Shown here one piece after another: positions 1,932 through 23,505 of a DNA stretch of 64,000 bases (the stretch's first letter is position 1; each line of letters starts with the position of its first letter). A program made the position numbers and the translations under genes. The notes under the pieces are model-generated. The model saw only the letters and a list, made by a program, of their open reading frames with translations. It did not search any database and was not told the DNA's origin. The DNA is taken from assembly GCA_965221165.1 (NCBI GenBank), contig CBDCRP010000003.1:2081924-2145923 (forward strand), in the 5' to 3' direction. Source of the stretch: a bacterium. GTDB taxonomy: Bacteria > UBA8248.

Positions 1932-2342
1932 ATGGCTTACAGCGAAAAGGTGGTCGATCACTACAACAACCCCCGCAACGTCGGCTCGCTCGACAAGAGC
2001 GATCAGACGGTGGGCACGGGCATCGTCGGCGCGCCCGAGTGCGGCGACGTGATGAAGCTGCAGATCAAGGTGGACGAAGGAGGCCTCATCGAGGACGCGA
2101 AGTTCAAGACGTTCGGCTGCGGAAGCGCCATCGCCTCGAGTTCTCTGGCCACCGAGTGGCTCAAGGGCAAGACGGTGGACGAGGCCGAGGAAATCAAGAA
2201 CACGCAGATCGTCGAGGAGCTCAACCTCCCGCCCGTGAAGATTCACTGTTCCGTGCTGGCGGAAGACGCCATCAAAACCGCGCTGAACGATTTTCGCGAG
2301 AAGAACGGGGTGCCGGTCGTCGAGCGCAAGGGCCACCACTAG
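1932..2342 (+). CDS. iscU: Fe-S scaffold IscU
   Basis: GAPECGDVM, TFGCGSAIASSS, LPPVKIHC motifs. Confidence 0.97.
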   Translation: MAYSEKVVDHYNNPRNVGSLDKSDQTVGTGIVGAPECGDVMKLQIKVDEGGLIEDAKFKTFGCGSAIASSSLATEWLKGKTVDEAEEIKNTQIVEELNLPPVKIHCSVLAEDAIKTALNDFREKNGVPVVERKGHH

Positions 2343-20818: not shown

Positions 20819-20911
20819 CGGAGATTTCCGCTTGGGGAAAAGCCGCCATATCCCGCGCCGCCTGAGCCGTGGCGCGGCGTCGATGGACGCTGGCTTTAAG
20901 GGAGATTGTCG

Positions 20912-21157
20912 ATGTCGGACTTGGAAGTGACGGTGTATTCATCATCCACGTGAGCGCCCTGTAAGGCGGTGAGAGAGTTTCTCTCCCATCATGGCGTGGC
21001 GTATACGGAAAAACTCGTCGATCAGGATGAACAGGCCCTGGAGGAATTATTCCAGAGGGCGGACATGCGGGCCACGCCCGTGATTTTCGTGGACGATGAG
21101 AAGGTGGTCGGCTTCGATCGGGCGAAGCTCGAAAAGCTGCTGGGGCTCGCCGCATGA
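20912..21157 (+). CDS. Putative selenoprotein: glutaredoxin/NrdH-like redoxin with UxxC (U-A-P-C), 81 aa
   Basis: AAGGGAG RBS, ATG 20912, MSDLEVTVYSSST-[TGA 20951-53]-APCKAVREFL...ATPVIFVDDEKVVGFD; the ORF track calls only the post-TGA part, which lacks strand beta1 and the active site. Confidence 0.88.
20968..20988 (+). promoter_or_regulatory. Putative bacterial SECIS hairpin for TGA 20951
   Basis: GAGAGA-GTT-TCTCTC stem-loop (20971-20985); loop starts with G, 23 nt after the UGA. Confidence 0.55.
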
Positions 21158-21453
21158 GCGAAAACCGCAGGACCCTCGCCTGTCCCGGCTGAGGGCAACG
21201 CATACCCGTCCCGTGGGATGCGAAAACGCGCGATCTGGTCGATTGCGAGAATTGTGCGGGGGTGAGATTCCGCTTGGGCCGAGCGGAGGGGGCGGAGGTT
21301 CTCACTATCGTGCAGATGGTTTCATGCCCCCTTTGTGGTGAATACATACCGGTGGATGAGGACACCCCCGCAGGTTCCGTTTTCGAGCACGACGGAAAAA
21401 AACTGCGCCTCGATAAGGAATTCGGCGCATTCGTCCTGGCGCCCGAGGAGTAG
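21154..21453 (+). CDS. Putative selenoprotein: tandem LysW-like zinc-ribbon protein with CxxU, 99 aa
   Basis: ATG overlaps the upstream stop (ATGA); MSENRRTLACPG-[TGA 21190-92]-GQRIPVP..DLVDCENC...VSCPLCGEYIPV...LAPEE, in frame with the tracked ORF 21262-21453. Confidence 0.8.
21199..21222 (+). promoter_or_regulatory. Putative bacterial SECIS hairpin for TGA 21190
   Basis: CGCAT-a-CCC-[GTCCCGT]-GGG-ATGCG; G-led loop 15 nt after the UGA. Confidence 0.5.
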
Positions 21454-21575
21454 GGGCGCGATTGGATTCAGGGAAGAAATTCCGAGGTCTGTTTCCTTCG
21501 CGGTGAGTTGTTGATAGAGTATCGGTGCGTTCAGCGAGAGCGCATCTGCAAGAAAGGATTGCACGGGAGCATGTG

Positions 21576-21968
21576 ATGGCTTCTCGACCACAGGCCACTA
21601 TACCGCTGGATCACGCCGACAAATTGAATCGGGACTTGCTCGCGCAATTGGAGGAGCTTGAAAAAACTCCCGAGGAGGATCGTTGGCCCGAAGCGGTGTG
21701 GCCTACCGCTCAAGCGTTTAAGGATGCGGAAATTTTCGTTCGGAAGCTGCCGCTGGGCTCGATTCCCATGCCCTATATAGGGCTGGCCGATGACGGGGAA
21801 GTCAATTTTCTATGGAAAAAAGATGGTGTTCATGTTGATCTTGGGTTCTATGGAACGCGTACTTATACTTACTTTGCGCACGGTAAAGATGGACACCCAA
21901 TCGACGGCGAAGATATTCCGGCATCCGAAGGATTGCCTTCCGAAATCGTAGAACTGTTCACGGTCTGA
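21576..21968 (+). CDS. Hypothetical acidic protein, possible antitoxin/immunity partner
   Basis: GGGAG RBS before ATG 21576; P.I...DGEV.F.W motif; AT-richer composition. Confidence 0.6.
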   Translation: MASRPQATIPLDHADKLNRDLLAQLEELEKTPEEDRWPEAVWPTAQAFKDAEIFVRKLPLGSIPMPYIGLADDGEVNFLWKKDGVHVDLGFYGTRTYTYFAHGKDGHPIDGEDIPASEGLPSEIVELFTV

Positions 21969-21975
21969 TACAACC

Positions 21976-22494
21976 TTGCAAGCTCCTTCTCCACATCTTG
22001 ACGAGGAAAAATGCGCCGCGCCGGGAATCTCTCCCGGGGTTGTCGAGGACGAGGAGTTTCTTCTTCGAGAGATGTTCAACCCACAGCATGTCCAGGATGG
22101 GGAAGTGCTTGAGACTGCGATACCAGCAAAGGACCTTTGGAAGAAAGGATTTTCTGTTCATCGGATGAAGTACGTTTCAGTTGAGTTCATAAAAAATGCG
22201 GTCGAAGTACGCCTGTCTCGTCCCAGAAAAGGCGAACCCTGGAAAGACGAGGGTGTGGCGAAGCTACAAACGCTATCTGTACGACAGCTTCTTACAGATG
22301 ACGACAAAAAGGCGTTTGTTGTTATTGATACGGCCACGGAAGACAACCCCGGACATGCCAGCATATATATGGCCGAGTATATTGCAGAGCCTAAAAAAGG
22401 CGAAAGACATGCAAGGAGATTCAGGCATTTGCTTCTGGATATTCTTCAAAACAGAATGACCATAGATGAGGCGTATGCCGGTGCGATCGGTTAG
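21976..22494 (+). CDS. Hypothetical protein with possible ADP-ribosyltransferase-like (Tse2/RES-like) fold
   Basis: LLR...P, GFSVHR and D....NPGHASI motifs (R-S-H arrangement); AT-richer composition. Confidence 0.5.
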   Translation: MQAPSPHLDEEKCAAPGISPGVVEDEEFLLREMFNPQHVQDGEVLETAIPAKDLWKKGFSVHRMKYVSVEFIKNAVEVRLSRPRKGEPWKDEGVAKLQTLSVRQLLTDDDKKAFVVIDTATEDNPGHASIYMAEYIAEPKKGERHARRFRHLLLDILQNRMTIDEAYAGAIG

Positions 22495-22548: not shown

Positions 22549-23505
22549 TTGGCAGAACGTGATTTCGAAATCATCATCATCGGGGCCGGGCCTGCGGGGC
22601 TGACGGCGGGGCTTTATACGGCGCGTTCCAAGCTGAACGTGGTCTGCTATGAAAAACTCGCGCCCGGCGGCGAGATTCTCAACACCGAGCACGTGGAAGA
22701 CTACCCGGGCTTCGAACTGGTCGGCGGGCAGGAACTGGCGGCCAAGTTCACCGATCACGCCATGAAGTTCGGCTTGCGGATCGAGATGGAAGAAGTCTCC
22801 GAAGTGAGAAAGGACGGGGATGATTTCCTCGTCGTCACCGACATGGGCGAGCGCCGCTGCGGGGCGGTGATTTATACGCCCGGCGGCTATCCGAGAAAGC
22901 TCGCGATTCCGGGCGAGGAGAAATACGCGGGCAAGGGCGTCAGCTACTGCGCGCTTTGCGACGGCGCGTTTTTTCAGGATGAGGTGATCACCGTCGTGGG
23001 CGGCGGGAACAGCGCCGTGGAAGAGGGGCAGTTCCTCACGAAATACGGCACGAAGGTCTACCTCATTCACCGCCGCGATCAGTTCCGCGCCCATGCGGTC
23101 TTGATGGACAGGATTCGCGAGAATCCCAAGATGGAGATCATCACCGACCACGTGGCGGAAGAGGTGGTGGGCGATGACAGGGAGATGAAGAAGCTGCGCA
23201 TCAAGAATGTGAAGACAGGTGAGACGCAGGAACTCGACGCCACGGGCCTGTTCGTTTTCATCGGTTTTATTCCGAACACGGATTTGATAAAAGATCACGT
23301 AGAAAAGGACGATGCCGGCTTTATCCTCACGGATCAGAACATGGAGACGAATGTTCCGGGCCTGTTCGTGGCCGGTGATTGCAGAAGCCAGTTGATTCGC
23401 CAGATCACCAACGCATCGGGCGATGCGACGACGGCGGCGGTGGCGGCCGAGAAATATCTCGAAGCCCAGGTGGAGGCCAGGAAACAGGCCGCGGCGGCTT
23501 CCTAG
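22549..23505 (+). CDS. trxB: Thioredoxin-disulfide reductase
   Basis: GAGPAG, GVSYCALCDG, GGGNSA, HRRD, GLFVAGD motifs. Confidence 0.95.
   Translation: MAERDFEIIIIGAGPAGLTAGLYTARSKLNVVCYEKLAPGGEILNTEHVEDYPGFELVGGQELAAKFTDHAMKFGLRIEMEEVSEVRKDGDDFLVVTDMGERRCGAVIYTPGGYPRKLAIPGEEKYAGKGVSYCALCDGAFFQDEVITVVGGGNSAVEEGQFLTKYGTKVYLIHRRDQFRAHAVLMDRIRENPKMEIITDHVAEEVVGDDREMKKLRIKNVKTGETQELDATGLFVFIGFIPNTDLIKDHVEKDDAGFILTDQNMETNVPGLFVAGDCRSQLIRQITNASGDATTAAVAAEKYLEAQVEARKQAAAAS

Follow-up and report, generated by a model that had tools for sequence, protein, structure and literature searches.

The closest described relatives of the protein considered here are LysW and ArgW (PF21344, NF041070; 3vpb chain E and 3wwn chain B), globular zinc ribbons in which a CPxCG knuckle is followed, after some 17 residues, by a second knuckle. 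In the LysW carriers, the acidic C-terminus ending in EDWGE is the tail that carries the amino acid. Among selenoproteins, a comparable case is the FmdB family (TIGR02605), a small CxxC...CxxC zinc ribbon in which selenocysteine (Sec) stands in for a ligand Cys and two-Sec forms occur; Table 1 of PMC13188914 includes an FmdB-family zinc ribbon among its predicted selenoproteins, with the motif UxxU. Here we analyse a gene, called the ribbon gene in the following, that is located at 21154-21453 on the plus strand of a 64,000-nucleotide stretch of contig CBDCRP010000003.1 (assembly GCA_965221165.1; the whole stretch is hereafter the window), and that encodes two tandem LysW-like zinc-ribbon domains with an in-frame TGA at a ligand position. 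We will argue that its product, the ribbon protein, is very probably a real selenoprotein, and that it probably works with the glutaredoxin-like selenoprotein encoded directly upstream. The gene context of its relatives suggests that its business may be soft-metal handling, a claim to which we give slightly less than an even chance.

The ribbon protein differs from the systems above in several respects. Compared with LysW and ArgW, it is a tandem protein with Sec at ligand positions, it comes without EDWGE and without LysX, and its partners are a Sec-containing glutaredoxin, thioredoxin-disulfide reductase (TrxB) and mer-like genes. It is not a member of the FmdB family either, against which it scores 14.4 bits (E = 0.029, cut-off 31.3). 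In FmdB both Sec residues lie in one knuckle (UxxU), whereas here Sec takes the second ligand position of one knuckle or of both (CxxU...CxxU), within a tandem LysW-type architecture and with a fixed Sec-glutaredoxin partner. Also among the nearest entries of PMC13188914 Table 1 are NF041197, a 'Dual CXXC motif small protein', and MbdU. Both are predicted selenoproteins of small size, rich in Cys, for which a metal or redox function is presumed, but neither model matches the ribbon protein at E <= 0.1, and their Sec motifs are RxU, GxU and CU. Rubredoxin, Hsp33 and RsrA have metal sites formed by a pair of knuckles with four Cys, the ligands of which can be redox active. The four-ligand knuckle pair of the ribbon protein may resemble these sites; no family match was found for the ribbon protein.

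A different comparison is with the proteins that hand over mercury in mer systems (MerP and the N-terminal domain of MerA) and with the MerB-like/SaoL organometallic systems. Relatives of the ribbon protein are encoded between MerB-like and MerT-like genes under a divergent MerR, and the Cys/Sec pairs of the ribbon proteins would suit soft metals. The ribbon fold is, however, not the HMA fold, the GMTCxxC motif is missing, there is no MerA in the 3-kb flanks of the soil relatives described below, and the host genome is without mer genes. In a preprint by Haft and Gwadz (bioRxiv 10.1101/2022.07.06.499078), Sec in MerB-like/SaoL systems is argued to contact a heavy metal, and the words 'ribbon', 'LysW' and 'zinc' do not occur in its text.

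The ribbon family is absent from the 119 prokaryotic selenoprotein families of PMC13188914 Table 1 (2026), none of which is LysW-like or PF21344, and no selenoprotein-specific NCBIfam model matches the ribbon protein. Full-text literature on zinc-ribbon selenoproteins and on Nitrospina selenoproteins gave nothing relevant; the BSepDB list (111 families) lay outside this search and could contain the family. As far as checked, the ribbon family is thus a new selenoprotein family, as had been suspected when the window was read from its sequence without database searches (the sequence-only reading below), with a conceptual precedent for Sec in zinc ribbons in FmdB. The gene module to which it belongs appears to be undescribed. 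The ribbon proteins would be one more selenoprotein family, overlooked by automatic annotation, with Sec at the metal-ligand positions of a zinc-ribbon fold rather than in the active site of a thioredoxin fold.

The ribbon gene and its probable selenocysteine codons

The ribbon gene consists of 99 codons, and its translation reads MSENRRTLACPGUGQRIPVPWDAKTRDLVDCENCAGVRFRL...VSCPLCGEYIPVDEDTPAGSVFEHDGKKLRLDKEFGAFVLAPEE, followed by TAG. All features given below for the window are on the plus strand. The ATG shares bases with the TGA that ends the glutaredoxin-like open reading frame (ORF, 20912-21157) upstream, as ATGA at 21154-21157. A single in-frame TGA is found across the ribbon ORF, namely codon 13 (21190-21192), which stands where the first CxxC knuckle would have its second Cys and is read here as Sec. 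Both the overlap and the in-frame TGA had been pointed out in the sequence-only reading, and both are confirmed. That reading had also placed the TGA at a Cys position on the basis of an internal repeat, and the repeat is found by BLASTP as well: residues 7-52 align with residues 55-99 at 35% identity over 43 residues (E = 6e-7), which makes the two halves homologous, and U13 pairs with C61 of CPLCG. The N-terminal ribbon (21181-21255) has the ligand positions C10, U13, C31 and C34, which are invariant columns in the alignments A1 and A2 introduced below. Codon 34 (21253-21255) is TGT, i.e. Cys, in the window, and is the second Sec site of its relatives. The C-terminal ribbon (21325-21393), as delimited with A1, A2 and the profile alignment with LysW 3vpb_E, has C58, C61, H79 and D80, and its second knuckle is degenerate.

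Each half of the protein has the LysW fold, and the tandem LysW-like ribbons seen in the sequence-only reading are borne out by several methods. Pfam PF21344 (Zn_ribbon_LysW) matches residues 9-34 with 28.8 bits against a cut-off of 27, and a profile made from 30 sequences finds, among structures in the Protein Data Bank, LysW of Sulfolobus tokodaii (3vpb_E) for residues 56-97 with E = 2.2e-5. The AlphaFold2 (AF2) model is all-beta, with a predicted local distance difference test (pLDDT) score of 84.8, and its top Foldseek match is again 3vpb_E (TM score 0.81, root-mean-square deviation 1.5 Å over 54 columns, probability 1.00); the associated E value, 0.047, is as high as it is because the domain is so small. 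In the C-terminal ribbon, CPxC is combined with [C/H]-C across the wider family and with H-D in Nitrospinota. Since the N-terminal four-ligand site is constant while the C-terminal ribbon varies, the former is presumably the functional site.

Evidence for the selenoprotein assignment comes from orthologues. A six-frame search of all 51 Nitrospinota species genomes gives one ribbon orthologue per genome in 30 of them. With TGA read through, these 30 sequences form alignment A1 (A2 contains the wider family), which is continuous over the length of the protein, including both sides of the TGA, at identities down to 32%. The Cys/Sec columns 10, 13, 31, 34, 58 and 61 are invariant in A1, and H79 is nearly so. 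At residue 13, 17 orthologues have TGA and 13 have a Cys codon (TGT or TGC), which is the comparison that the sequence-only reading had proposed as a check. At residue 34 the corresponding numbers are 10 and 20, and nine orthologues have TGA at both positions. The Cys residues 10, 31, 58 and 61, on the other hand, are encoded by a Cys codon in 30/30 cases each and by TGA in none, and between the start and about residue 95 the orthologous frames contain no other TGA. Sec occurs nowhere but at the second ligand of an N-terminal knuckle. The recurrence of TGA at exactly the Cys column of residue 13, in orthologues of separate genomes, is far beyond chance. A maximum-likelihood tree of the orthologues requires six or more changes between the four Sec/Cys states, and Sec and Cys have therefore been exchanged repeatedly. 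The close relatives thus include natural Cys4, Cys3Sec and Cys2Sec2 versions, a ready series for studying the role of selenium at a metal site.

The host genome (3 contigs, 3.69 Mb, 96% complete) contains the complete machinery for Sec: a tRNA-Sec with 75.9 bits, above the Rfam cut-off, SelA with 507 bits, the SelB-specific wing domain with 73.9 bits at a distance of 3 kb from SelA, and SelD with 329.8 bits (G000:C2:975065-976027, minus strand). We note in passing that the host SelD is itself a selenoprotein form, with one in-frame TGA. The hidden selenoprotein proposed in the sequence-only reading is thus supported by Sec/Cys pairs within one column, by sequence that is conserved before and after the TGA, and by a complete Sec machinery; the 5' region is conserved in 30 genomes, and the TGA recurs.

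The gene has escaped attention in databases. Nine of 12 database proteins retrieved by a word search are 63-residue fragments with starts beyond both TGAs, i.e. automatic gene calls shorten the ribbon protein. A scan of genome contigs gives eight loci, all from Nitrospinota or metagenome-assembled genomes. In practice, gene finders ought to translate through TGA at such loci.

We now consider the hairpins downstream of the two Sec sites. According to the rules for bacterial Sec insertion sequences (bSECIS; PMC13188914 Fig. 2), the loop has 3-9 nt with a G in its first two positions, the spacing is 16-37 nt and the minimum free energy is at most -7.5 kcal/mol. The hairpin that the sequence-only reading had reported 3' of UGA13 (21199-21222) is present, folds with -11.1 kcal/mol and fits these rules; in an alternative register it has a 5-bp stem (21207-21220), a 4-nt loop CGUG and a spacing of 19. 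Every Sec13 form has a hairpin with its loop about 19-24 nt from the UGA. Three observations, however, weaken it as evidence for the Sec assignment. The 76-nt stretch at the hairpin has no advantage in folding over its shuffled versions (z = -0.21, with 81/200 shuffles folding at least as well), for which reason the hairpin alone proves nothing. Across the Sec13 forms there is no covariation or consensus structure after codon 13, and the registers vary by genus. The mean energies of the hairpins after codon 13, -9.8 kcal/mol for Sec forms and -11.5 kcal/mol for Cys forms, do not separate the two.

The situation at codon 34 is more regular. All ten Sec34 forms have a hairpin of 8-9 bp 3' of this codon, with energies of -14.4 to -17.4 kcal/mol, and the consensus fold has -14.2 kcal/mol and one compensatory pair. 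In genus g9 the full hairpin is found in the sole Sec34 form (L036), and a weaker one in the four Cys34 siblings. The window has kept a hairpin at 21268-21288 (-13.6 kcal/mol) that is equivalent to the candidate SECIS of the Sec34 forms; its retention despite TGT at codon 34 suggests a recent switch between Sec and Cys.

Partner genes in Nitrospinota and in soil relatives

The gene directly upstream of the ribbon gene (20912-21157) encodes a glutaredoxin-like selenoprotein with a UxxC site (STUAPC), its UGA being located at 20951-20953. The protein is nearest to the YruB and NrdH families and below both cut-offs (TIGR02196 YruB, 78.3 bits against 88.55). A UxxC glutaredoxin gene is found directly upstream of the ribbon gene at 30/30 Nitrospinota loci, with Sec (TGA) in all 30. 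The glutaredoxin-like gene as such is present in 43/51 Nitrospinota genomes, and every match has an in-frame TGA; no Cys form was found among these Nitrospinota matches (30 loci, 43 genomes). This always-Sec state is unusual for a UxxC redoxin.

TrxB is encoded further downstream in the window (22549-23505; TIGR01292, 361.5 bits, cut-off 343.45), and a TrxB gene is found in the examined flank of 15/30 loci. In the window's genus the ribbon gene precedes TrxB, and the Sec-glutaredoxin and TrxB are its sole conserved neighbours. Glutaredoxin-like proteins of the NrdH type are reduced by thioredoxin reductase, and TrxB is the likely reductant of the glutaredoxin-like protein here. Four genomes without the ribbon gene have the order PrpD, glutaredoxin, TrxB, with nothing between. 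Judging from this arrangement, the ribbon gene is an accessory that was inserted between the Sec-glutaredoxin and TrxB. In a fifth ribbon-less genome (G032), a 16-codon ribbon remnant, VSERRKALSCPGCGQF, followed by a stop, stands after an intact Sec-glutaredoxin gene (L132 (G032:C1) 1942-1989, minus strand); here the ribbon gene has decayed.

We now turn to more distant relatives. A profile search against 1.84 billion representatives gives 95 relatives at E <= 1e-3, 39 of them at E <= 1e-10, which their sources label just 'hypothetical protein'. A scan of metagenome contigs with the sub-alignment A3 gives at least 470 loci, of which 80 were examined (L050-L129). These are soil loci from one high-G+C clade, which is probably Methylomirabilota/Rokubacteria. 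A natural all-Cys relative (P0016) matches, in a protein atlas, LysW-like clusters from Rokuibacteriota/Methylomirabilota, and this is to be taken as a lead on taxonomy, not on function.

In the soil clade the ribbon protein is all-Cys at the ligand positions at 79/80 loci. A glutaredoxin-like gene is found upstream at 73 of the 80, the remaining seven having no room upstream, and Sec is present in 61 of the 62 glutaredoxin active sites that can be read. Counting the loci with room in each case, a gene with a MerB domain lies upstream at 46/47, a divergent MerR-family regulator is present at 43/44, and a MerT-like membrane protein carrying an LCCLLP motif is encoded downstream at 71/71. The order in the cluster is divergent merR, merB-like, Sec-glutaredoxin, double ribbon and merT-like (e.g. 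L129 1504-3911). MerA was found in none of the 3-kb flanks. An efflux protein of the cation diffusion facilitator (CDF) type was also considered as a member of the soil operon and was ruled out, as it occurs at only 1/43 loci with room. At locus L129, a TGA is found at the Cys equivalent to residue 34, followed by a local hairpin that is missing from the siblings.

Genes of this kind are also found closer to the window. In Nitrospinota outside the window's genus, MerR, MerT, MerE or zf_CopZ is encoded just downstream of the ribbon gene on the same strand at 9/17 loci, three of which are Sec forms (L030, L031 and L037). The score of MerT at L027 is 38.7 bits against a cut-off of 32.9, and that of MerE at L030 is 38.9 against 22.8. 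Proteins with a zf_CopZ domain adjoin the ribbon gene at L025 (1134-1829), L027 (789-1244), L033 (440-907) and L035 (2564-2995). The CopZ-family 2Fe-2S proteins are on the selenoprotein list of PMC13188914.

Proposed function and alternative explanations

Taken as a whole, the explanation that we consider best, and to which we give a somewhat better than even chance, is that of a Sec ribbon serviced by the Sec-glutaredoxin and TrxB, with a site that binds soft metals or is redox active. The mechanism that we infer, from Sec insertion itself through metal binding and the identity of the metal to the interaction with the glutaredoxin-like protein, would be as follows. The ribbon product would be a cytosolic selenoprotein of 99 residues with two tandem LysW-fold zinc ribbons, in which UGA13 is very likely decoded as Sec by SelA, SelB, SelD and tRNA-Sec of the host. 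The N-terminal ribbon would be the functional four-ligand site, with Cys3Sec in the window and, among relatives, Cys2Sec2, Cys3Sec or Cys4. The two Sec positions we take to be the more exposed, mutually adjacent ligands, as in the knuckle geometry of the rubredoxin type. That Sec would be a metal ligand, as the sequence-only reading had it, we infer from its position in the knuckle. The ribbon protein would be made together with the UxxC glutaredoxin-like selenoprotein, given the overlapping stop and start, and would act with it. A thiophilic metal ion, Hg(II)-like or else one of Cu, Cd and Zn, would be bound at the Sec/Cys site and passed on by ligand exchange; alternatively, the site would cycle via a selenenylsulfide or diselenide that is resolved by the Sec-glutaredoxin. 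In both cases the neighbouring TrxB would probably regenerate the glutaredoxin-like protein by reduction.

The metal variant of this explanation is suggested by the all-Cys relatives in the merR/merB-like/Sec-glutaredoxin/ribbon/merT-like cluster, together with the mer and CopZ genes beside other Nitrospinota copies. In its most specific form, the ribbon protein and the Sec-glutaredoxin would constitute an unrecognised selenium-dependent module for mercury-type soft metals. Sec would be the metal ligand at two exposed positions, Hg(II) or the product of an organomercurial would be taken over from MerT-/MerB-like proteins and passed onward by selenol/thiol exchange, and TrxB would be the driver in place of MerA. 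We put this detailed version forward tentatively and consider it rather unlikely to hold in full. Three features go beyond the sequence-only reading, namely the second Sec site (residue 34), the Sec-glutaredoxin as an obligate partner and the mer-like surroundings in relatives, and they move the likely role from the 'rubredoxin-like carrier' suggested there towards soft-metal handling. The module is present in marine Nitrospinota and in abundant soil bacteria, and in the literature Nitrospina-like bacteria are named as potential mercury methylators of the ocean. The ribbon protein, the always-Sec glutaredoxin and the mer-like operons of relatives would together form a conserved module, which may bear on the handling of mercury and other soft metals in marine nitrite oxidisers and soil bacteria.

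It has to be pointed out that a number of observations weigh against this explanation. Several of the mer-like matches lie below curated cut-offs: MerT reaches 25-29 bits against 32.9 at most loci, the NCBIfam model for SaoL/MerB 57-62 against 140, and MerR 132.7 against 150.85. The 96% complete host genome gives no match to MerT, zf_CopZ, MerB or HgcA, and its best MerA-like match is likewise below the cut-off (368 against 454). As mer genes were not found in the host, the mercury-type context comes from relatives at 32-60% identity and not from the locus in the window. The glutaredoxin-TrxB pair is found without the ribbon gene in 13 of the 43 glutaredoxin-bearing genomes, which makes the ribbon protein dispensable and means that it may be one client of several. 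The C-terminal ribbon may be a purely structural Zn site. Finally, none of the public RNA runs is listed with the region 20850-21500.

One alternative is that the protein is a real selenoprotein that acts as a redox switch or electron carrier without a role towards toxic metals. Its N-terminal knuckles would then contain Zn that is set free by oxidation, as in Hsp33 and RsrA, or Fe as in rubredoxin, and it would be a client or electron acceptor of TrxB and the Sec-glutaredoxin in the defence against oxidative stress. Such a role is in line with the absence of mer genes from the host and with the conservation of just the Sec-glutaredoxin and TrxB as neighbours in the window's genus; at L029, L039 and L040, moreover, redoxins of the AhpC/TSA type adjoin the pair. 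Interchange of Sec and Cys at CxxC is also the usual signature of redox-active Cys (PMC13188914). The mer-like context of the soil clade, which is practically invariable for merT-like (71/71), merB-like (46/47) and merR (43/44), points instead to a metal, as do the MerR, MerT, MerE and CopZ neighbours at 9/17 other Nitrospinota loci, and no rubredoxin family is found among the matches listed (25 of 39 Pfam rows). We regard a purely redox role as a possible but rather improbable alternative.

Two other readings would do away with the Sec site as a functional feature, and we consider both to be much less probable. If the protein were a tandem duplicate of a LysW/ArgW-type carrier, Sec would merely be a structural Zn ligand. 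Its best family matches are indeed all LysW (PF21344, NF041070, 3vpb_E), and its C-terminus is acidic (LAPEE). However, NF041070 reaches only 41.1 bits against a cut-off of 75, and the EDWGE tail is absent from the window protein, which ends FVLAPEE, and from all A1 orthologues. No LysX is found in the host genome at the cut-off, the best match (143.1 against 275.6 bits) being over 100 kb distant. Within that genome, LysW-like matches are limited to the two halves of the ribbon gene itself. Its neighbours belong to redox and metal functions, and in no case to lysine or arginine biosynthesis; in the window they are PrpD, glutaredoxin and TrxB. The ribbon protein is thus not a LysW carrier, in agreement with the sequence-only reading, and the carrier alternative is exceedingly improbable. 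The remaining reading is that the gene does not encode a selenoprotein at all, the TGA ending a leader of 12 codons or marking a decaying gene, with a product of 63 residues made from, e.g., GTG at 21262. This is the form that automatic gene calls yield, the hairpin after UGA13 is not significant, and the gene is dispensable, with the 16-codon remnant in G032 as an example of its loss. The 63-residue product would, however, be without the entire invariant N-terminal ribbon. In-frame codon conservation on both sides of the TGA in 30 genomes, at identities down to 32%, would then have no place, nor would the restriction of TGA to two of six Cys columns, and the host does possess the Sec machinery. 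We therefore consider this reading very improbable.

Further features of the locus

Between the ribbon gene and TrxB, the window contains two ORFs at 21525-21968 (147 aa) and 21976-22494 (172 aa). No convincing match was found for them in Pfam, NCBIfam or PADLOC, apart from one weak, below-cut-off Pfam row, DMPK_coil (E = 0.023). They are present in some genomes of the genus, and at L014, L018, L019 and L022 the ribbon gene leads straight to TrxB. The two ORFs look like an inserted two-gene cassette.

Six orthologues (L024, L026, L028, L029, L030 and L034) have a C-terminal extension of 15-25 residues, which in five of them contains an extra Cys in the motif R/K/S-P-x-C; in L026 there is a Leu at this place. 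In eight other orthologues a TGA is found right after about residue 98. The possibility that this TGA encodes a third Sec was considered, and we judged it to be probably a stop: the downstream frame at L025 and L027 has more TGAs, and the position is out of register with the extra Cys of the extended orthologues.

Finally, the sequence was compared with Logan contigs of public sequencing runs. Positions 20989-21500 are found in two runs with zero differences; this match is not independent support, because both runs probably come from the sample of origin. In related contigs of four public runs, two of which are labelled as sponge metagenomes, there is a T>A change at 21255, which converts codon 34 from TGT to TGA. 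The co-occurring relatives are therefore Sec34 forms.

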